Assembly (NCBI GenBank): GCA_018970325.1
Contig: JAGWWP010000002.1
Span: forward strand, 24,693 to 88,692
Reading direction: 5' to 3'
Source of the DNA: Cyanobacteria bacterium REEB446
Lineage (GTDB): Bacteria > Cyanobacteriota > Vampirovibrionia > LMEP-6097
DNA length: 64,000 nucleotides
The position numbers and the translations under genes are program-made. The notes under the pieces were generated by a model. It did no database searches and was not told where the DNA came from. It saw nothing but the letters and a program-made list of their open reading frames with translations. The number at the start of each line of letters is the position of its first letter. Position 1 is the stretch's first letter. Below, piece by piece: positions 5,777 to 50,602 of the stretch.

Positions 5777-6376
5777 TTAATTCTCTTTTATGGATAAGAT
5801 TTTTTCTAATTTTTGAGTCTGAGTATTTATAAGTATTTCTATGATTAAATTACGTGAAGAATTTTCTGTATCAGTGAAAGTTTCCTTCCCAAAGCAGATA
5901 ATTTTTACTAAGACTTTATCTATATTCTCAGTGTAAATTTTATTTATTTGAAACTCACTGTTGATCTTGTTTTGACTACGAGCTTCTATTTCTTGTATGA
6001 GGTACTCCGTGAAGAAAGTCTCTTCAGTATTCTCTTTTAGCCACTTGGAGTGTTCTTCCTGTCTGTTTGTGTATTTAGAAAATAGCTTAGAGAGATATGC
6101 TTGAGTGAAATTTTCTATATTGAAATCACTGCTTCCATTGATAGATAAAGCTTTTTGGGCTCTAGTGTTTTTAGAATTATCCTTGTTTTTTAAAACACTG
6201 CTATCAATAAAAACTCTATTTCTACTGTTTAAAAGCTTATTACAGTTATGAATTTCACACATTGCTAATGCTAGAGATATAGATAGAAAGAGGATTATAC
6301 TTAGCAGTATTTTTACTATCGAAGGCAGGTAAAGTATTTTAAGCAAATATTTTAAAGAGTTATATTTTAAGACCAT
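5777..6376 (-). CDS. Hypothetical bitopic membrane protein
   Basis: 199 aa with a single N-terminal TM (LPSIVKILLSIILFLSISLALA). It overlaps the upstream gene's end by 10 nt, which indicates translational coupling within the cluster. Confidence 0.4.
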   Translation of the reverse strand: MVLKYNSLKYLLKILYLPSIVKILLSIILFLSISLALAMCEIHNCNKLLNSRNRVFIDSSVLKNKDNSKNTRAQKALSINGSSDFNIENFTQAYLSKLFSKYTNRQEEHSKWLKENTEETFFTEYLIQEIEARSQNKINSEFQINKIYTENIDKVLVKIICFGKETFTDTENSSRNLIIEILINTQTQKLEKILSIKEN

Positions 6377-8700
6377 ATATTTTTCTCCTGCATTTTTTCT
6401 AGTGTCTGTCTTGCGATGGACATATTATCGAGAAAGCTGGCATGGCTAGAATCTTTTAGATTAGCAGCTTTAATTTCATTAAAGATTAACTGCCTCTCTC
6501 TCACGACTTCTGCACTGGAGTTCGTTAATATTAGTTCATCTTGATCTGCTTTAAATTTAATTAAACCAGAGAATTTAGAAGTTTTAAGTAGTGCTGTACC
6601 CCTGTCTTTAATCTCTTGCGATTCTAGTAGCTTCAGTTCTCGCTCATTAAGATTTAAGTGGCTGCCCAACTCAGCTTTATCTGTATTTTCTTTACATTGA
6701 AAGATGAAACTGCTTGCAGCAGAGGAGTGTATATCACGAGTTAAATCTGAGGGTTTTTGAGAAATAGTCCATAAGCCTAAATTCATAGCTCTGCCAGTTC
6801 GAGCTAGCTTGCTGATAAGCTTTTTACTAAGAGGGTTCTCTTCTTCATAAATTAATTTCCAAGCTTCATCTATCACTAAATAAATGGTGTTGTCTAGTTC
6901 TCTTACAGCGTTCTCTATTTGCATGAAAATATTTTCTAAGCAGAAGTTAGTCAGGGCTTTGTTTTTTTCGATACTATGAAAATTAACTAAGCTTATATTT
7001 TTTTTAAATAATATTAAGTTCTTAAATGACTCTGGGGAATTATAAATTTCCCCACCCATATAAGCAGTAAAAAATTCCCAGCCTAGTAGTGTACTATCTA
7101 AAATAACAAACTTGGCATTAGAGCACTGTTGCCGAACTCCAATTTCTGCGTTTTCGTTGTCCTCATGATCCTCATGTACCCGCAGTACATTGCGGTCATT
7201 CGTCCTCCTCAGCCTTGAACTTGCACGTTCGGCAACAGTGCTATTCGGGGATTGCTCGCAATCTTCAATTCTTGCGTTTTCGTCGTCCTCGTGATTTAAA
7301 CTTCTTTTAATTAAAAGCTTTACTGCAAGTGACTTTCCTGAGCCAGAGTCACCTATGAAATTAATAGATTTATTATTGCAGAATTGAGTATTTTCAGGTG
7401 TGAAATATACTAGGGATCTATCATCTAATTTATAACCAATTAATGCTCCATTTTCCATGCAGGTTCTATCTTCTAGAAATGGATTAAAATAATTCAGGTC
7501 TTTAGCTGTTATTAAGAATGGGAGATTTTGTATTTTTTCTGTATAGAGTTTTCTTTGCAAATATTTAGCTTCATTGAAACTAAGTAGTGACTGACTAGTA
7601 GATATTTTGAGGAGATTTTTTTCTAGTATTTCTTTATTAGGGCTGTATAATTTCAGGATAATTTGCAGGTTTGCGATGAAGCTATTATCATAGATCTCAT
7701 GGTAAAGAGACTTTAGGGAATCTAAGTGACTTTTATTACTAAGAGCTGCTCTGGTAAAGCTTTGAAGACAATTTATCTTATGGTTAATTAGTGATTTATC
7801 TCGATTCAGATTTCGTTCTTGTAAAATGATGCATAATTCACTAGTGCAGCTTAAGCTTTTCAGGAAATTATTTAATGATTCGAAGCTAGCATTTTCAAGC
7901 TCAAGGTCTTTTAGAGAGAGGCATTTAATATATTCATGTGTCTTAATATAATTAATTCTTTCTTTGAAATCAGTCAAATCATTCTGTTTGTCTGAAATGA
8001 TCTCAAAACTTATTTTATTTGCAACACTAAAGAGCTGTAGGTGATAATTTATTTGCTGTAAAGTCTTTTCTGAATTACTGTTCACCTCAATTTCTAAAAA
8101 CCTACATGGATGAAATATCTTCTCTTCATATTGGGAAGCCCTTTCTTTAGCTGGATTCATTTCTTGAATATTTTCGGCATTGATGAAAATTCTGAATTTA
8201 ATTTTGGTTTTTGAATTTCGATATTCTAGTATATTTTCTAAAAGCTTCTGCCAGAGATGGTTTAATTGATCTATTTCAAGTTTGCTTGCTGTAGAGTAGT
8301 TAATTAATTTTTTAATTCTATATCTTTTACTGTAGGATTTTACTTTTTGAGAGAGAGGCAGAAAGTTTAGTTTTAAGGCTGATTTATTAAATAGAGATTT
8401 AGTATTTCTATCTAAGCAAGACTGTGATTGGTTTTGAGGTTTAACTAATAACGGATAACTTATATGTTTTATAAAGAAACTATTTTCGCTAAGATTCAGT
8501 TTAGTACTGCGATAGCAGATCCAGAGAAAGGTAAAGCTGCTTAGAATCCATATGGCAAGTGGGCTATCTATTTGTAGAGCTAGCAGCTGTATTAAATAGA
8601 GATATAATCCTAGAAATAAAACTCCTAGTGAAATTTCTTTTAAGCTGAGTCCACTAAAAATTTCTATATCTTTTTTTAAGGCTAAGTGTTTTTTTATCAT
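6367..8700 (-). CDS. Membrane-anchored P-loop ATPase of the VirB4/TraC - HerA/FtsK superfamily; carries two in-frame RPE-like insertions
   Basis: 777 aa. Two N-terminal TM helices are followed by Walker A INFIGDSGSGKSLA, Walker B YLVIDEAWKL and a downstream ARTGRAMNLGLWTISQKPSDL segment (VirB4-like RK..TQ motif). The repeat-encoded insert ...ERASSRLRRTNDRNVLRVHEDHEDNENAEIGVRQQC... lies between Walker A and Walker B. Confidence 0.55.
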   Translation of the reverse strand: MIKKHLALKKDIEIFSGLSLKEISLGVLFLGLYLYLIQLLALQIDSPLAIWILSSFTFLWICYRSTKLNLSENSFFIKHISYPLLVKPQNQSQSCLDRNTKSLFNKSALKLNFLPLSQKVKSYSKRYRIKKLINYSTASKLEIDQLNHLWQKLLENILEYRNSKTKIKFRIFINAENIQEMNPAKERASQYEEKIFHPCRFLEIEVNSNSEKTLQQINYHLQLFSVANKISFEIISDKQNDLTDFKERINYIKTHEYIKCLSLKDLELENASFESLNNFLKSLSCTSELCIILQERNLNRDKSLINHKINCLQSFTRAALSNKSHLDSLKSLYHEIYDNSFIANLQIILKLYSPNKEILEKNLLKISTSQSLLSFNEAKYLQRKLYTEKIQNLPFLITAKDLNYFNPFLEDRTCMENGALIGYKLDDRSLVYFTPENTQFCNNKSINFIGDSGSGKSLAVKLLIKRSLNHEDDENARIEDCEQSPNSTVAERASSRLRRTNDRNVLRVHEDHEDNENAEIGVRQQCSNAKFVILDSTLLGWEFFTAYMGGEIYNSPESFKNLILFKKNISLVNFHSIEKNKALTNFCLENIFMQIENAVRELDNTIYLVIDEAWKLIYEEENPLSKKLISKLARTGRAMNLGLWTISQKPSDLTRDIHSSAASSFIFQCKENTDKAELGSHLNLNERELKLLESQEIKDRGTALLKTSKFSGLIKFKADQDELILTNSSAEVVRERQLIFNEIKAANLKDSSHASFLDNMSIARQTLEKMQEKNIWS
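7124..7240 (-). repeat. Full-length RPE-like palindromic element (117 bp) inserted in-frame in the ATPase gene
   Basis: It has a perfect 13-bp terminal inverted repeat, cactgttgccgaa ... ttcggcaacagtg. The core gaaaacgcagaaattggagtt / gcaagttcaaggctgaggaggacgaatgaccgc is shared with the other copies. Confidence 0.8.
7241..7293 (-). repeat. Second, partial RPE-like element in tandem with the first (3' half type)
   Basis: Its reverse complement, cacgaggacgacgaaaacgcaagaattgaagattgcgagcaatccccgaatag, matches the 2083-2120 and 19620-19667 variants. Confidence 0.7.
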
Positions 8701-19468: not shown

Positions 19469-19518
19469 TAGTTTTACTCCTCAAAAACCTAATTTTAGCA
19501 CGCTGCTATTACTTGACG

Positions 19519-19667
19519 CTGAAATTGAAGTTCGGTAATAGTACCCAAAGGGGACTGCTCACAAACGTGCAAGGGAAACGCAGAAATTGAAATTCGGCAA
19601 TAGTACAAGGGGAATGCTCACAAACGAACAAGGGAAACGCAGAAATTGGAGTTTGCGAGCAGTCCCC
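19519..19667 (+). repeat. Tandem array of about three degenerate RPE-like elements between fba and rnj
   Basis: gaaattgaagttcggtaatagtac...ggggactgctcacaaacgtgcaagggaaacgcagaaattgaaattcggcaatagtacaaggggaatgctcacaaacgaacaagggaaacgcagaaattggagtttgcgagcagtcccc. The palindromic termini are ggggaNtgctcacaaac / gtttgcgagcagtcccc. The last copy abuts or overlaps the rnj stop codon. Confidence 0.7.
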
Positions 19668-23472: not shown

Positions 23473-25086
23473 TTAGTGTCTGTGAGAGGTTTCTAGTAGG
23501 GCTGAATTTAATCTTTCGATGATTTTTTCTTTACCTAAAAGTACTGCAATAAACCCTAGTTCAGGCCCACTAGTTTTAGCACTAATGGCTACGCGAATTG
23601 GGAAAAATAGTTTTTTACCTTTGAGGTTTAATTTCTCACCAATAGAATTAATACCATTTTTAATTGAATCTTGATCAGCAAAATCTAGAGAACCACTTTC
23701 GATAAGGGATATGAATTCATGGATAACTTCTTTACCTTCTTCGGCGATCGTAATTAAAGTACTATCATCAAGTTTAAAGTCTTCAAAAAAATAGTTAATA
23801 TGTTCATCTATCTGTTCAAATTTATCTAGGCTTTCTTGAATGGATTCAATTATTAACTGGATTTGAGATGAATTAAATAGAGAATTATTTTCTAAATTGA
23901 ATCTTGAAAATCTAGAAACATGAGTTAATATTTCTTCATAGTTTAGTTTGCTTATGTAGTCACGGTTATACCAGTTTAATTTTTGAATATCGTAGATAGC
24001 TGGGCTTTTACTAACGCTAGTTATCTGAAAATCTTCAGCAGCTTCAGTGATAGTAAATATTTCACCATACTTAGCTGAATTATAACTCGTACCTAAAAGG
24101 TAATTAACGAGAGCCTTTGCTAAATAGCCTTGAGTTTTATAAGTGTTAACAGAAGCGATATCACCATGTTTACGTTTAGAGAGCTTCTGTTTATCCTTCG
24201 TGAAAATTAAAGGTAGGTGCCCAAATTCGGGAATCGGAAAATTTAAAGCTTCATAAATAGCGATCTGTTTCGCTGTATTACTTATATGATCTTCTCCTCT
24301 CAGAATGTGTGAAATCTGCATTTCATAATCATCTATCACTACTGCAAAATTATAGAGAACCTGCCCTGTGGATTTCTGGATAACTGGGTCTCCGCCAAGG
24401 TCTCTAGTATTAATGGATACTTCACCTCTGATTAAATCTAACCAAGTGATTACATGGTCTGCTCCTAGATTTAATCTAACGACATAGGGCTTCCCTTCTT
24501 TAAGTAATTTTTCTGAATCATCTTTGGAGACATCTCTTGATCGATTATCATATTTCTCTATCTCTTTACGAGCTTTCTGAGCTTCACGCATAGCGTCTAA
24601 TTCTTCTACTGTCGCAAAACATCTATAAGCTTTACCCTCATTAATTAATCTTTCTATATAACTGCTATGCACGGCTTCTCTGAGTGATTGTCTGACTATT
24701 CCATCTTCACCTAAACCTACGAGAGTTTCTCGGGCACGTAGCGGAACTCCAATTTCTGCGTTTTCGTCGTCCTCATGATCCTCATGCACACCTAGTGCAC
24801 TGCGGTCTTTCGTCCTCCTCAGCCTTGAACTTGTTCGTTCGGCTACGTGCCCTTCTGGCGTATCCCAAGAGATATTTAACCATTTAAACCCTTCTAATAT
24901 TTCTTGAGTAAACTGTTCTTCGCTTCTTTGTCTATCAGTATCTTCTAGTCTAAAGAAAAACTCACCTTGGTGTTTTTTTGCGAAAAGTACATTGTAGAGA
25001 GCTGTTCTGACGGTACCTAAGTGTAGATTACCTGTTGGGCTAGGTGCTATTCTGGTTCTTACTTTAGGAAAGGCGTTTAAGGGCAT
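23473..25086 (-). CDS. gltX: Glutamyl-tRNA synthetase carrying an in-frame RPE-like insertion
   Basis: HIGH region RIAPSPTGNLHLGTVRTAL and KMSKS region KLSKRKHGD are present. An extra ~45 aa, ...HVAERTSSRLRRTKDRSALGVHEDHEDDENAEIGVPLRARETLVGLGEDG..., sits between the class I catalytic-core motifs and is encoded by the repeat at 24732-24852. Confidence 0.85.
   Translation of the reverse strand: MPLNAFPKVRTRIAPSPTGNLHLGTVRTALYNVLFAKKHQGEFFFRLEDTDRQRSEEQFTQEILEGFKWLNISWDTPEGHVAERTSSRLRRTKDRSALGVHEDHEDDENAEIGVPLRARETLVGLGEDGIVRQSLREAVHSSYIERLINEGKAYRCFATVEELDAMREAQKARKEIEKYDNRSRDVSKDDSEKLLKEGKPYVVRLNLGADHVITWLDLIRGEVSINTRDLGGDPVIQKSTGQVLYNFAVVIDDYEMQISHILRGEDHISNTAKQIAIYEALNFPIPEFGHLPLIFTKDKQKLSKRKHGDIASVNTYKTQGYLAKALVNYLLGTSYNSAKYGEIFTITEAAEDFQITSVSKSPAIYDIQKLNWYNRDYISKLNYEEILTHVSRFSRFNLENNSLFNSSQIQLIIESIQESLDKFEQIDEHINYFFEDFKLDDSTLITIAEEGKEVIHEFISLIESGSLDFADQDSIKNGINSIGEKLNLKGKKLFFPIRVAISAKTSGPELGFIAVLLGKEKIIERLNSALLETSHRH
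24732..24852 (-). repeat. Full-length RPE-like element (~121 bp) in-frame within gltX
   Basis: A 16-bp TIR, gggcacgtagcggaac ... gttcggctacgtgccc, bounds the shared core gttcaaggctgaggaggacgaaagaccgcagtgcac...catgaggatcatgaggacgacgaaaacgcagaaattggagtt (reverse complement). Confidence 0.8.
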
Positions 25087-30017: not shown

Positions 30018-30983
30018 ATGTCTAATAGTCTTGAAAATCAGATAAATATAATAGTTGCAGAATTGCCTGTGGCTATTAGGCTTGATGTTTATTTAGCTGG
30101 GCTGGAATCACTGAATTTAACTAGATCCTTTATTGGGGCTTTGATTGAGGATGGGAAGATCTTACTGAATGCTAAAGTGGTAAAAGCTTCTCATAAAATT
30201 AAGAACGGCGATGCGATTTCTATTAATCTGCCACCACCAAGGAGTTTAGATATATTGCCAGAGGCTATTCCTTTGGATATTATTTTTGAAGATGAATATC
30301 TTTTGGTTTTAAATAAGCAAGCTGGTTTAGTGGTACACCCTTCATCTAATACGGTGAATGGCACTCTAGTAAATGCTCTTCTGCACTACTGTAAGGATAG
30401 CTTATCCCAAATTAACGGTGTTTTAAGACCAGGTATAGTACATCGTCTTGATAAAGATACTACAGGCTTAATGCTGGCTTGTAAAAATGATTTAGCGCAC
30501 AGGCGCTTAGCAGAACAGATTAAGAATCGGGAAGTTGAAAGATATTATCAGACTTTAGTTTTAGGAAACTTAAGAGAAACTAGTGGTTCTGTAATTAAAC
30601 CTATTGGGCGTGATCACAATGATAGGAAGCGGATGCGCACTTTTGAAACGCTAGAACACGCTAGGTATGCGAAAACCAACTGGCAGTTATTAAAAAGGTA
30701 TAAATATAAAGCTTCTCAAGATCCTTTTACACTGCTTGAATGTAAGCTGGATACAGGTAGAACTCATCAAATTCGCGTTCATATGAATTACATAAAGCAT
30801 CCCATTATTGGTGATGCTGTTTATGGCATAGAGAAAAATAAACTAAAAGCGTATAGACCGCTTTTACACTCATATAAATTAGAATTCACTCATCCTATTA
30901 CGGAGGAAAGGCTGAAATTTGAAACAGATTTGCCTGAAGATTTTAAAACTTCCCTAAGTTTTCTCGAAGAGAATCTACACTAA
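30018..30983 (+). CDS. rluD: 23S rRNA pseudouridine synthase, RluA/RluD family
   Basis: An N-terminal S4-like region followed by the catalytic VHRLDKDTTGLML motif. Confidence 0.85.
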   Translation: MSNSLENQINIIVAELPVAIRLDVYLAGLESLNLTRSFIGALIEDGKILLNAKVVKASHKIKNGDAISINLPPPRSLDILPEAIPLDIIFEDEYLLVLNKQAGLVVHPSSNTVNGTLVNALLHYCKDSLSQINGVLRPGIVHRLDKDTTGLMLACKNDLAHRRLAEQIKNREVERYYQTLVLGNLRETSGSVIKPIGRDHNDRKRMRTFETLEHARYAKTNWQLLKRYKYKASQDPFTLLECKLDTGRTHQIRVHMNYIKHPIIGDAVYGIEKNKLKAYRPLLHSYKLEFTHPITEERLKFETDLPEDFKTSLSFLEENLH

Positions 30984-31023
30984 TACCAAGCTTAGAAATA
31001 AACATCCAAAACACAGCTTTATG

Positions 31024-31075
31024 AGGGGCGTGTAGCTGATGAAAACACAGAAATTGGAGTTCCGCTACACATGCC
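31024..31075 (+). repeat. Short remnant of the RPE-like element
   Basis: ggggcgtgtagctgatgaaaacacagaaattggagttccgctacacatgcc contains the conserved core with a mini-palindromic flank (gtgtagc / gctacac). Confidence 0.55.
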
Positions 31076-38454: not shown

Positions 38455-38512
38455 GACCGCTGTACAACTTGCATTTTCAAGACTGAGGAGAACGAATGAC
38501 CGCAATGTACTC
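38455..38512 (+). repeat. Partial RPE-like element (5' half type) between pmbA and tRNA-Pro
   Basis: gagaccgctgtacaacttgcattttcaagactgaggagaacgaatgaccgcaatgtac matches the 5' half of the copy at 40094-40151. Confidence 0.65.
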
Positions 38513-38533
38513 TATTTCTTTAATTAATAAAAA

Positions 38534-38610
38534 TGGTCGGGACAGCAGGATTTGAACCTGCGACCTCTTCGTCCCAAGCGAAGCGCTCTACCAAGCTGAG
38601 CCATGTCCCG
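38534..38610 (-). tRNA. tRNA-Pro (anticodon UGG), CCA encoded
   Basis: The reverse complement CGGGACA UG GCUC AGCUUGGUA GAGC G CUUCG CUUGGGA CGAAG AGGUC GCAGG UUCAAAU CCUGC UGUCCCG A CCA folds into a perfect cloverleaf. Anticodon loop CUUGGGA gives UGG, with G37. Confidence 0.85.
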
Positions 38611-40093: not shown

Positions 40094-40289
40094 GAGACCA
40101 CTGCACAACGTGCAGTTTCAAGGCTGAGGAGGACGAATGACCGCAGTGTACGGCTAATTTCCAGCGATGCCGAGCATGCGACATTAATGTTATATGCGAG
40201 CAAGCGGAAATACAAGCTTGATTTATCAAGCTTACATGAGGATCATGAGGACGACGAAAACGCAGAAAATGGAGTTGTGCAATGGTCTC
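40094..40289 (+). repeat. Composite RPE-like element split by a ~75-bp nested insertion; 16-bp TIR gagaccaYtgcacaac
   Basis: The 5' part is gagaccactgcacaacgtgcagtttcaaggctgaggaggacgaatgaccgcagtgtac. An unrelated 40152-40224 segment follows, containing a perfect 20-bp palindrome aagcttgatttatcaagctt. The 3' part is catgaggatcatgaggacgacgaaaacgcagaaaatggagttgtgcaatggtctc. In other copies the two halves are contiguous. Confidence 0.7.
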
Positions 40290-49024: not shown

Positions 49025-50602
49025 TTACGCACTTGGTATTAGTCTTTGAAAAATTTGAATATAGTAATCATCTTCGACGAAAACATAACGATTGTAAATT
49101 AAGCTTTTACCATCAGGACTCCAGTGTATGCCATTGATTGGCGCTTCTCTGCACTGTTGTAGAGCTTCAATTTCTGCGTTTTCGTCGTCTCCATTGATGT
49201 TAATTGTATTGCCATCTTGCGCGTTAACTAAATATATCTGGTTGTTAGACACTGCTGAAATATACTTATCATCAGGGCTGAGATTGAATTGTGACTGGAC
49301 AGAGTATTTGAAATTTGTTATTTGTTTAACAGGCTGATTTGTGATTGTATTTTTAGTATTTTCAGCACTGTTCACTGAGTAGATTTGAACGATACCATTA
49401 TCATCTTTCATTAGAAAATAGATATGGCTTCCATCTGCTGAGCTGCGTAGCCTAAAACGTGGTCCCTGAAGCCCAGGGTATTTCCTATCTGTAGTAAAAG
49501 TAATTCTTCTTTGTGTGAATCCTGCTGGTACATTAGGTCTGCTATTTAAACTCCCTTCTAGTGGTTTATCTGTAAGTGATTGAGTTATATCATTTGGAAT
49601 ATCTGCTATAAAAACTTCTGTAACTAAAGTCCCATCTAGTGAACGGACATTTCCTTGAAAGGCTATGGCTCGTGTCTGCTGTGAACCATTGTGAACAGTG
49701 CTATCGTCTTTCGTGTAACCGTTTTTACCCAGCCAGCACTCATCGAAAGCTCGTTCTATTTCATCACTACCGAATTTAGGATTTTCTGTAACCTCAGCTG
49801 CGACTACCGCGAAGTAAGTTCCTCTGAAATTCTCTTCAGGGCACTGCTCGCGAACTCCAATTTCTGCGTTTTCGCCCGCCTCATGATCCTCATGAATATT
49901 CTCTATCATCGTCATCACGCCGATAGTCCTCAAGTCTTTTCTTTCACTTGAAGAAGTTTTTTCTAAACATTCTATAAGGTAATCGTTATAGGTAAAGCTA
50001 ATCCACTTGCCATCAGCACTCCAAGTATGAGCATGGGTTCCACCTCTTAAAGCTCCTTTGGTAAGTGGTTCTTGAATATTCCTACCTTCCGCATGATAAC
50101 ACTGCTGCCGAACTCCAATTTCTGCGTTTTCGTTGTCCTCATGATCCTCATGTACCTTGAGTACATTGCGGTCATTCGTCCTCTTCAGCCTTGAACTTGC
50201 ACGTTTGGTAACAGTGTCATTGTAAGATGATTGCGAAACTCCAATTTCTGCGTTTTCGCCCGCCTCATGACTCCCTGAAATAATCGCCCCGAATCTTCTC
50301 GTGAAGCTATAAGGTTTTTCTTCGTCGCAATTTAAAAGACCGTGAATGAAAATGATGCTGTCATTAACAGGGTTCCAAGCTGCTGCCCCTACCCCCGGTC
50401 CATAGATACTTTGATTTTTGGTTTTATAGAGTTCAATAATTTCTTTAGTCACAATATTTAACTTACAGATACTTCCAGTGCGGCTTATGTGAGTATCATC
50501 GTTGCGAGTATCGAAGACTAGCCACTTGCCGTCTGGGGAGAATATTTGTGTGGCATTGAGAGTGTGACCGTGTTTCCCGTTTGTTAATTGTATTTCGTGC
50601 AT
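49025..50602 (-). CDS. Beta-propeller (TolB/PD40-like) hypothetical protein carrying four in-frame RPE-like insertions
   Basis: Repeated SPDGKW / SADGKW / SPDGKS blade motifs. Inserts encode HEAGENAEIGV, KRASSRLKRTNDRNVLKVHEDHEDNENAEIGVRQQC, HEDHEAGENAEIGVREQC and DDENAEIEALQQC. Confidence 0.5.
   Translation of the reverse strand: MHEIQLTNGKHGHTLNATQIFSPDGKWLVFDTRNDDTHISRTGSICKLNIVTKEIIELYKTKNQSIYGPGVGAAAWNPVNDSIIFIHGLLNCDEEKPYSFTRRFGAIISGSHEAGENAEIGVSQSSYNDTVTKRASSRLKRTNDRNVLKVHEDHEDNENAEIGVRQQCYHAEGRNIQEPLTKGALRGGTHAHTWSADGKWISFTYNDYLIECLEKTSSSERKDLRTIGVMTMIENIHEDHEAGENAEIGVREQCPEENFRGTYFAVVAAEVTENPKFGSDEIERAFDECWLGKNGYTKDDSTVHNGSQQTRAIAFQGNVRSLDGTLVTEVFIADIPNDITQSLTDKPLEGSLNSRPNVPAGFTQRRITFTTDRKYPGLQGPRFRLRSSADGSHIYFLMKDDNGIVQIYSVNSAENTKNTITNQPVKQITNFKYSVQSQFNLSPDDKYISAVSNNQIYLVNAQDGNTININGDDENAEIEALQQCREAPINGIHWSPDGKSLIYNRYVFVEDDYYIQIFQRLIPSA
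49146..49197 (-). repeat. RPE-like fragment (copy 1 in the beta-propeller gene)
   Basis: ctctgcactgttgtagagcttcaatttctgcgttttcgtcgtctccattgat. Confidence 0.6.
49841..49905 (-). repeat. RPE-like half element (copy 2 in the beta-propeller gene)
   Basis: ggcactgctcgcgaactccaatttctgcgttttcgcccgcctcatgatcctcatgaatattc. Confidence 0.65.
50099..50215 (-). repeat. Full-length RPE-like element (copy 3 in the beta-propeller gene, 117 bp)
   Basis: cactgctgccgaactccaatttctgcgttttcgttgtcctcatgatcctcatgtaccttgagtacattgcggtcattcgtcctcttcagccttgaacttgcacgtttggtaacagtg. Near-identical to 7124-7240. Confidence 0.8.
50230..50275 (-). repeat. RPE-like half element (copy 4 in the beta-propeller gene)
   Basis: ttgcgaaactccaatttctgcgttttcgcccgcctcatgactccc. 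Confidence 0.6.

Follow-up and report, generated by a model that had tools for sequence, protein, structure and literature searches.

Within a 64,000-nucleotide stretch of the Cyanobacteria bacterium REEB446 genome (contig JAGWWP010000002.1; this whole stretch is referred to as the window), a gene encoding a DUF3748/PD40 beta-propeller contains four pieces of one short palindromic element. A 22-nt core of the element (CGAAAACGCAGAAATTGGAGTT, host sense strand) has 10 matches with up to 3 mismatches in the window and none in 100 shuffles, and 4 of the 10 are located inside this single gene. A profile of the element, built with nhmmer from three full window copies, likewise yields four matches in the gene, all on the minus strand and within a few bases of the four in-frame pieces that a preliminary description had listed. 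The host gene and the element pieces within it are the following.

49025 to 50602, minus strand: host gene, DUF3748/PD40 seven-bladed beta-propeller, intact in the open reading frame (ORF) listing, 525 aa.
50224 to 50269, minus strand: copy A1, an older right-half remnant (nhmmer 50231-50271, model positions 72-112, E 3e-7).
50219 to 50223, minus strand: left copy of the A2 target duplication, ACAAT, which is also the site adjoining the right end of the older A1.
50098 to 50218, minus strand: copy A2, a full 121-bp element (nhmmer 50101-50216, model positions 1-116, E 3e-38).
50093 to 50097, minus strand: right copy of the A2 target duplication, ATCAT, with 3 of 5 bases matching in the sequence.
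49840 to 49894, minus strand: right-half remnant at site B (nhmmer 49845-49897, model positions 62-114, E 1e-10).
49688 to 49702, minus strand: possible fifth trace, a 15-nt indel AGCACTGTTCACAAT (STVHN) resembling the left terminal repeat.
49150 to 49193, minus strand: right-half remnant at site C (nhmmer 49153-49194, model positions 75-116, E 2e-5).

The four pieces are spread over three loops, one of which holds an adjoining pair (the older right half, then the full copy), and three of the four are trimmed remnants. All are translated in one frame (...ENAEI(G/E)...), which is also the frame of the copies in gltX and in the gene of an AAA ATPase, as had been remarked before. The encoded peptides are DTVTKRASSRLKRTNDRNVLKVHEDHEDNENAEIGVRQQC for copy A2, HEAGENAEIGVSQSS for copy A1, whose degenerate right terminal repeat reads GTTTCGCAATCATCTT, HEDHEAGENAEIGVREQC for site B and GDDENAEIEALQQC for site C; an example of a host-element junction peptide in the protein is ...ISGSHEAGENAEIGVSQSSYNDTVTK... 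In total, 94 of the 525 residues (18%) are derived from the element, close to the earlier estimate of roughly 20%. From the copy density elsewhere in the window, 0.23 copies would be expected in a gene of this size, and the chance of finding at least four is ~1e-4, or ~2e-3 for at least three when the adjoining pair is counted as one site. Copy A1 is found in 25 of 25 close orthologs and is missing from outgroups of ~50% identity. The piece at site C occurs in this genome alone among the 25 orthologs, where it stands in place of 15 nt of host sequence (ERYSE). The indel at 49688-49702 is polymorphic among the orthologs, one of which (P0023) carries a right half (NAEIEDCEQS) in the same loop, and may, with low confidence, be a remnant at a further site, F.

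In a protein search, the host protein had a 100% match in the MAG 'Cyanobacteria bacterium REEB446'. In Pfam, it matches DUF3748 (PF12566; 95.8 bits with a cut-off of 27, E 2.4e-27) and PD40 (PF07676; 39.6 bits with a cut-off of 20.9). An AlphaFold (AF2) model built on a 67-sequence alignment has a predicted local distance difference test score (pLDDT) of 84 and a predicted template modelling score (pTM) of 0.85, and the PD40 motifs together with the order of the DSSP strands give seven blades. In this model, pLDDT falls below 50 solely at residues 117-165 (site A) and 239-255 (site B), and confidence dips at residues 470-486, which correspond to site C. Numbered according to the strand list, site A is predicted to separate strands 103-109 and 168-174, the third and the fourth of blade 2, with site B in the equivalent third-fourth strand loop of blade 3 (strands 226-231 and 263-267) and site C between blades 6 and 7 (strands 466-468 and 489-494). 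All of the insertions are in loops of the model, but only site C lies between blades, sites A and B each being within a blade. A Foldseek search with the model matched only the propellers of DPP-IV/S9 peptidases; these matches are generic and give no pointer to the function of DUF3748.

All of the 25 close orthologs (464-554 aa) have an intact ORF in spite of their differing indel states. No frameshifts were seen among them, and the indels that separate them are each a multiple of three. Outgroup homologs (~50% identity, ~435 aa) are without any insertion. The ratio of non-synonymous to synonymous substitution rates (dN/dS) of the host gene is 0.14-0.21 at dS 0.22-0.44 (15 pairs from six orthologs, 425 host codons). 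In the family alignment of 67 sequences, 80 columns are invariant and a further 71 are conserved at 90% or more, and the gene order EamA-DUF3748-miaA-HD is kept around the orthologs. Because of this low dN/dS, the 25 intact orthologs, the synteny and the retention of the invariant residues, the suggestion that the gene is degenerating into a pseudogene fails; by all these signs it is a functional gene under purifying selection.

Based on 75 full copies, the element is a 117-nt unit bracketed by GG...CC and therefore 121 bp in length (GG + 117 + CC), a size of 117 + 4 nt that is found in 67 of the 75. Its inner ~87 nt are ~95% conserved. The outer 13-14 nt of the arms fall into at least four sequence classes (CACTGTTGCC, GCGTGTAGCC, GACTGCTCGC and GACCGCTGCA), and the opposite end is always complementary. 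Over 69 copies aligned without gaps, 14 of the 16 pairs of the 16-bp terminal inverted repeats are changed on both sides while 92% of the cells are paired, and compensated cells within arm classes number 27 versus ~1.6 expected (~17-fold). The 6-bp apical stem is paired in 100% of the copies, with two covarying pairs, and the 5-nt loop is hypervariable. Folding of the consensus gives a single long hairpin (-53.5 kcal/mol, z = -6.9). A strand-specific RNA structure is unsupported; because the stem mismatches of the G-T/T-G type (37) and of the A-C/C-A type (27) are similar in number, neither strand is favoured as a folded RNA. Internally deleted forms, down to ~45 nt, retain both arms and have microhomology junctions. 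A long form has a 198-nt core (+4 = 202) with two extra hairpins instead of the apical loop. The only open frames of the 121-bp and ~202-bp forms encode 40-aa peptides, and neither form encodes a transposase. The left half (model positions ~36-50, e.g. window positions 50165-50185 on the minus strand) contains AGGAGGACGAATG, a Shine-Dalgarno-like motif with an ATG that is in the +1 frame and open through the element end. This out-of-frame AGGAGG-N5-ATG could start translation inside host genes, which might explain the loss of left halves.

The element is flanked by a target duplication of exactly 5 bp, located at -7 to -3 and +3 to +7 of the 117-bp core. Identity between the flanks is 0.60-0.73 at these five positions and at background elsewhere. 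The duplication matches at 5/5 positions in 21 and at 4/5 in 18 of the 75 copies, compared with 0.7 and 4.3 in permutations, so that 39 of 75 copies match at four or more positions where 5 are expected. The target consensus, ~A-T-R-A-T, is AT-rich. Thirteen of 76 full copies, as well as the ATPase copy in the window, have a right half whose end adjoins the left duplication, and no right half was found downstream of, or inverted next to, any of the 76. New copies hence appear to re-use the 5-bp site beside an existing right end, and the adjoining pair at 50098-50269 would exist because new copies tend to land on the 5-bp site beside an older right end. Copies A2, B2 and E in the host gene share the apical loop CTCAAG, which is rare genome-wide (~5/75 copies), and the GGCAGCAGTG stem variant is common to A2 and B2; this suggests that copies have hopped locally or undergone conversion inside the host gene.

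A complete insertion never shifts the reading frame, because the element together with its duplication is divisible by three in both length classes: 121 + 5 = 126 bp, or 42 codons, for the full element, and 198 + 4 + 5 = 207 nt, or 69 codons, for 7 of 10 long copies. Two of the six frames are free of stops: S0 is open in 59 of 68 copies, and 55 of 68 have an open antisense frame, A0. The peptide encoded in S0 (e.g. ...HEDHEDDENAEIGV... or GTVAERASSRLRRTNDRSVLRVHEDHEDDENAEIGVRQQC) is charged and predicted to be disordered (Kyte-Doolittle -1.27, 44% charged); that of A0 contains Cys, Phe and His (Kyte-Doolittle -0.24). We collected 216 non-redundant copies or fragments from 0.8 Mb of five Vampirovibrionia/Melainabacteria metagenome-assembled genomes (MAGs) plus the window, of which 86 are located deep in long ORFs in S0, 1-2 are antisense and 103 are intergenic, and ~45% of the classifiable copies lie inside ORFs. 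Among full genic copies, 32 are in S0 versus 1 in antisense. Stop codons were rejected as the sole cause of this orientation bias, A0 being widely open but used only 1-2 times, and an insertion-strand bias as its main cause was weakened by the intergenic copies between tandem genes, which are merely 28:16 co-directional. Because A0 is rarely used and the intergenic bias is mild, we infer that the genic orientation bias results mainly from selection on the encoded peptide. Intergenic copies favour gene 3′ ends, with 30 located between convergent and 4 between divergent genes. Among 61 host ORFs, 16 carry two copies, two carry three and two carry four; the gene at 49025-50602 is at the top of this distribution and not unique.

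Comparison of the orthologs revealed an allele history in which filled, trimmed and collapsed states are all seen. The loop sites with insertions or remnants number at least six, since relatives add three loops (D, E and F) to A-C. Site A exists in three states: the older right half, its degenerate end and the full copy (window, P0003-5); a collapse between two identical cores, giving HEAGENAEIGVRQQCYH; and a deletion from GCCGAA to GCGGAA, with the full copy's left arm remaining (...PQSSHNGTA). All three stem from a two-copy state. In ortholog P0008, site A holds the long form. Site B consists of a right half plus a full copy in P0006 and P0007, of a collapsed form in the window and of HEDHEAGENA only in the other orthologs. 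Site C is consistent with an insertion of 126 nt from which 99 nt spanning the left junction were later deleted in frame. At site E, an empty allele (TTCA-TCGAA-GAT) can be set beside the filled one of ortholog P0003, which exceeds it in length by 126 nt (= 5 + 121). Taken from the sequences of these alleles, at least eight element events would have occurred in the host gene across the clade. The earlier description of the gene as a tolerant or preferred target is borne out by the number of loop sites affected, and the data support a tolerant, repeatedly struck gene. In ortholog P0002 (545 aa), a blade segment of ~80 residues between the site A and site B copies is duplicated; such a duplication would be expected from unequal crossing-over between two copies, and a misassembly could also produce it.

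We consider it highly probable that a functional DUF3748/PD40 gene has repeatedly been invaded by a non-autonomous palindromic MITE (a miniature transposable element with inverted repeats) akin to the Rickettsia palindromic elements (RPE). The element would be moved in trans by a putative transposase that duplicates a 5-bp AT-rich target, a transposase-mediated movement that we infer. Purifying selection would then keep only those insertions that are in the S0 frame and in surface loops, of which the propeller has many. Microhomology deletions and recombination between copies would trim or collapse the insertions, always in frame and mostly leaving right halves, and new copies would preferentially dock beside an existing right end and probably also hop locally. 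The multiplicity in 49025-50602 would be due to this right-end retargeting and local hopping. That the element is moreover adapted to life inside genes, having two length classes of whole codons and an open disordered frame, with its ends recognised as a hairpin, is a tentative addition that we regard as rather unlikely. The docking of new copies beside old right ends and the unusual constancy of the core in situ would likewise go beyond what ordinary MITEs do. If true, movement would be structure-dependent and arrays of copies would reshape proteins, the blade duplication of P0002 being an example.

Several observations weigh against the invasion of the gene by a transposase-mobilized MITE. 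Neither the window nor the 0.8 Mb of loci yielded a transposase with matching ends as an autonomous partner. A search for ends 0.3-3 kb apart returned, as the sole case, two short elements flanking a HAD-like gene, and the ORFs near the element in the window are housekeeping genes. The class-wise variation of the terminal repeats with kept complementarity is unusual for the ends of a sequence-specific transposase. The complementarity of the arms could result from recognition as a hairpin, from ends that co-evolve or from the correction of quasipalindromes by template switching. Right halves exceed left halves by ~8:1 in the window, an asymmetry that simple decay does not predict, and in the loci none of the 61 right halves that lack a left arm has a duplication at its truncated edge (p = 0.43). 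Right halves as 5′-truncated insertions of the retroelement type were rejected, given the lack of a left-edge duplication and the loss of 15 nt of host sequence at site C. Orthologous element copies diverge by 0-5.8% versus 15-24% at four-fold sites of the host. A comparison of L113 and L114 with window positions 50098-50218 included a pair with 0/121 differences in the element versus 131/1209 in the host gene, and in five other pairs (L102/L079, L014/L038, L030/L087, L025/L039 and L033/L090) the element differs by 3.5% versus 8.0% for the flanks. Inert junk would not show such slow divergence, which gene conversion, constraint at the nucleotide level or homogenisation by assemblers could produce. 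Every sequence analysed is from a metagenome assembly.

An alternative reading is that the element is more than tolerated and that it, or at any rate the right half HEDHE(D/A)(D/G)ENAEIGV, is now a domesticated sequence. Either the nucleic-acid core or the peptide would then be useful to the host, the latter perhaps as a linker or metal-binding segment of acidic or His-rich character. Consistent with such a role, the evolution of orthologous copies lags behind that of host four-fold sites and of flanks, with synonymous positions conserved too, retention is far commoner for right than for left halves, sites A and B hold a right half in 25 of 25 orthologs, and intergenic copies lie mostly downstream of genes. 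However, the few substitutions in the element-derived columns of the host are mostly non-synonymous (w 0.1-1.2 on small counts), and conservation would for this reason act on the DNA and not on the peptide. The same sequence also occurs in unrelated proteins and in intergenic DNA, its peptide is predicted to be disordered, and alleles that delete most of it are common. Divergence as slow as this could also come from conversion between the hundreds of copies or from bubble-popping when short reads are assembled. Taken together, we judge domestication to be unlikely.

Much less probable still is that the repeat is not a transposon and is spread by recombination or gene conversion, or as a hairpin-handled RNA or single-stranded DNA in the manner of REP/RAYT or IS200/IS605. 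This would agree with ends that conserve pairing rather than sequence, with the strong hairpin and with the lack of a partner transposase, but it does not agree with the precise 5-bp duplication or with the clean 126-nt filled/empty polymorphism. IS200/IS605- and RAYT-type elements make no target duplication. The mismatch counts given above, which favour neither strand as a folded RNA, likewise speak against this reading, and in Rfam 15 two element regions had no match even at E<=1, the matches above the gathering threshold in the window being two tRNAs only. A decaying pseudogene that is still open, with insertions as junk in dead DNA, might be read from four insertions in 1.6 kb and a product that is 18% repeat-derived and predicted to be disordered there, but it is scarcely credible for a gene with the dN/dS found here, 25 independently assembled intact orthologs, indels only in multiples of three and conserved columns and gene order. 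Chimeric joins across cores that are near-identical genome-wide, of which the P0002 duplication might be a case, can be dismissed with similar assurance as the origin of the multiple copies, since sites A and B recur in the 25 orthologs from NCBI, ENA, JGI and Logan obtained with different assemblers, the element with its 121 nt does not reach the length of typical reads or of k = 141, host sequence on either side runs collinear with outgroup proteins and the ORF is open.

Outside the host gene, the window contains further copies of the MITE-like element, both genic and intergenic.

7125 to 7295, minus strand: right half (7260-7295) adjoining a full copy (7125-7240) in the AAA-ATPase gene (6367-8700), the layout being as at site A.
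19511 to 19664, plus strand: tandem array of three internally deleted mini-elements between the genes for fructose-bisphosphate aldolase and RNase J.
24736 to 24848, minus strand: full in-frame copy in gltX (23473-25086), with stems that are off-consensus yet complementary (GCACGTAGCC / GGCTACGTGC).
40097 to 40289, plus strand: intergenic long-form element of 192 nt between rplT and dnaG, with the same ends and right half and ~75 extra nt.

Each mini-element of the array consists of a left stem, a short loop and a right stem, and the long form at 40097-40289 has two extra hairpins in place of the apical loop. A left-half remnant is located at 38459-38513, ~25 nt from a tRNA gene (38537-38610, minus strand).

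Beyond the window, the exact core 21-mer turned up in at least 107 stretches, which come from five species-representative genomes. The core-bearing genomes are all MAGs of the Vampirovibrionia/Melainabacteria type; one of them is labelled Caenarcaniphilales, and two with missing or wrong labels have orthologous loci. The element and orthologous loci are common to the window and the MAG WB4_1_1465, which is labelled 'Proteobacteria bacterium' (L005 1480-1600 versus window positions 30960-31075), and because these loci are orthologous to the window this MAG is assigned to the same Melainabacteria-type lineage. No match was found in PLSDB plasmids or in phage records. A search of viral contigs gave one hit (L112 3600-3680, IMG/VR), an in-frame right half near the C-terminus of HsdR. 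Although filed as viral, this contig is a chromosomal defence island by its gene content: besides HsdR and SNF2 helicases it has genes for an AbiEii-like ATPase and a YgjP-like peptidase. A peptide search of protein databases returned only small spurious ORFs and no host proteins; in several MAGs, gene callers annotate intergenic copies as 'hypothetical proteins' of 42-71 aa (P0121-P0164).

Palindromic elements of Rickettsia were reportedly described by Ogata et al. in Science in 2000 and in Genome Res in 2002. Compared by description only, RPE are the closest analogue of the present element, which would represent an independent family in another lineage. RPE are palindromes of ~100-150 bp, about half of which are in frame in conserved genes and encode a hydrophilic peptide (PMC2229807, PMC10969869). 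The likeness extends to the palindrome with its long stem-loop, to genic copies that are always in frame, here including an aminoacyl-tRNA synthetase, to the presence of intergenic copies, to a hydrophilic peptide in fold-compatible positions and to the existence of several subfamilies. RPE-type behaviour is seen here in the 86 genic copies in one frame, the gltX host, the 44% charged peptide and the low-pLDDT loops. In contrast to RPE, the host belongs to Melainabacteria/Vampirovibrionia and not to Rickettsiales, and the element has a 5-bp duplication, which is listed as unknown for RPE (PMC2229807, Table 1). It further differs in the 3n arithmetic in two length classes, the right-end retargeting and the retention of right halves. 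With MITEs, it shares its small size without transposase coding, terminal repeats, a fixed 5-bp duplication and a high copy number combined with polymorphism. ERIC/IRU, the 107-bp Correia/NEMIS elements and YPAL are MITEs that are capable of intragenic insertion with ORFs, are mainly intergenic and duplicate TA (Delihas 2007, PMC2229807). The present element resembles them in being small and non-autonomous, with terminal repeats, a target duplication, stable hairpins and occasional in-frame fusion, but ~45% of its copies are genic, it duplicates 5 bp and its outer arms are variable yet complementary.

Tn3 and its TIME derivatives, Tn7, Mu and Tn402 duplicate 5 bp, and ends of the Tn3 type begin with GGGG. 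The element shares with this group the 5-bp duplication and ends with GG, but its repeats are only ~16 bp in length and of at least four classes, and no cognate transposase was found in the window or the loci, so that it is assigned to none of these families. REP/BIME and the IS200/IS605-derived PATE are similar in being hairpin-forming and high-copy, often 3′ of genes and with structure kept over sequence; however, they are extragenic, make no duplication and depend on Y1 (HUH) enzymes, whereas here a 5-bp duplication occurs together with massive in-frame genic insertion, ~45% of the copies being inside ORFs, which sets the element apart from REP/RAYT and IS200/IS605 alike. Nezha and the Nostoc SDR are cyanobacterial MITEs or small dispersed repeats that resemble the element in their nested modular repeats and come from a related neighbourhood at the phylum level; to our knowledge, they are not described as systematically in frame. 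In the literature searched, we found nothing relevant that describes the element in Melainabacteria/Caenarcaniphilales.

For genome annotation, the element means that host proteins are inflated by up to ~20% and that indels mediated by the element, and possibly duplicated domains too, set orthologs apart; misjoins are a further risk in repeat-rich MAGs. For protein engineering, the surviving insertions naturally map those loops of conserved proteins in which 15-70 additional residues are tolerated. Because of the clean target duplication and the 3n arithmetic, this abundant family from uncultured relatives of cyanobacteria would be a cleaner system for studying the movement of such elements. 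In-frame selfish palindromes as in Rickettsia, found here in a different phylum, point to a recurrent solution.

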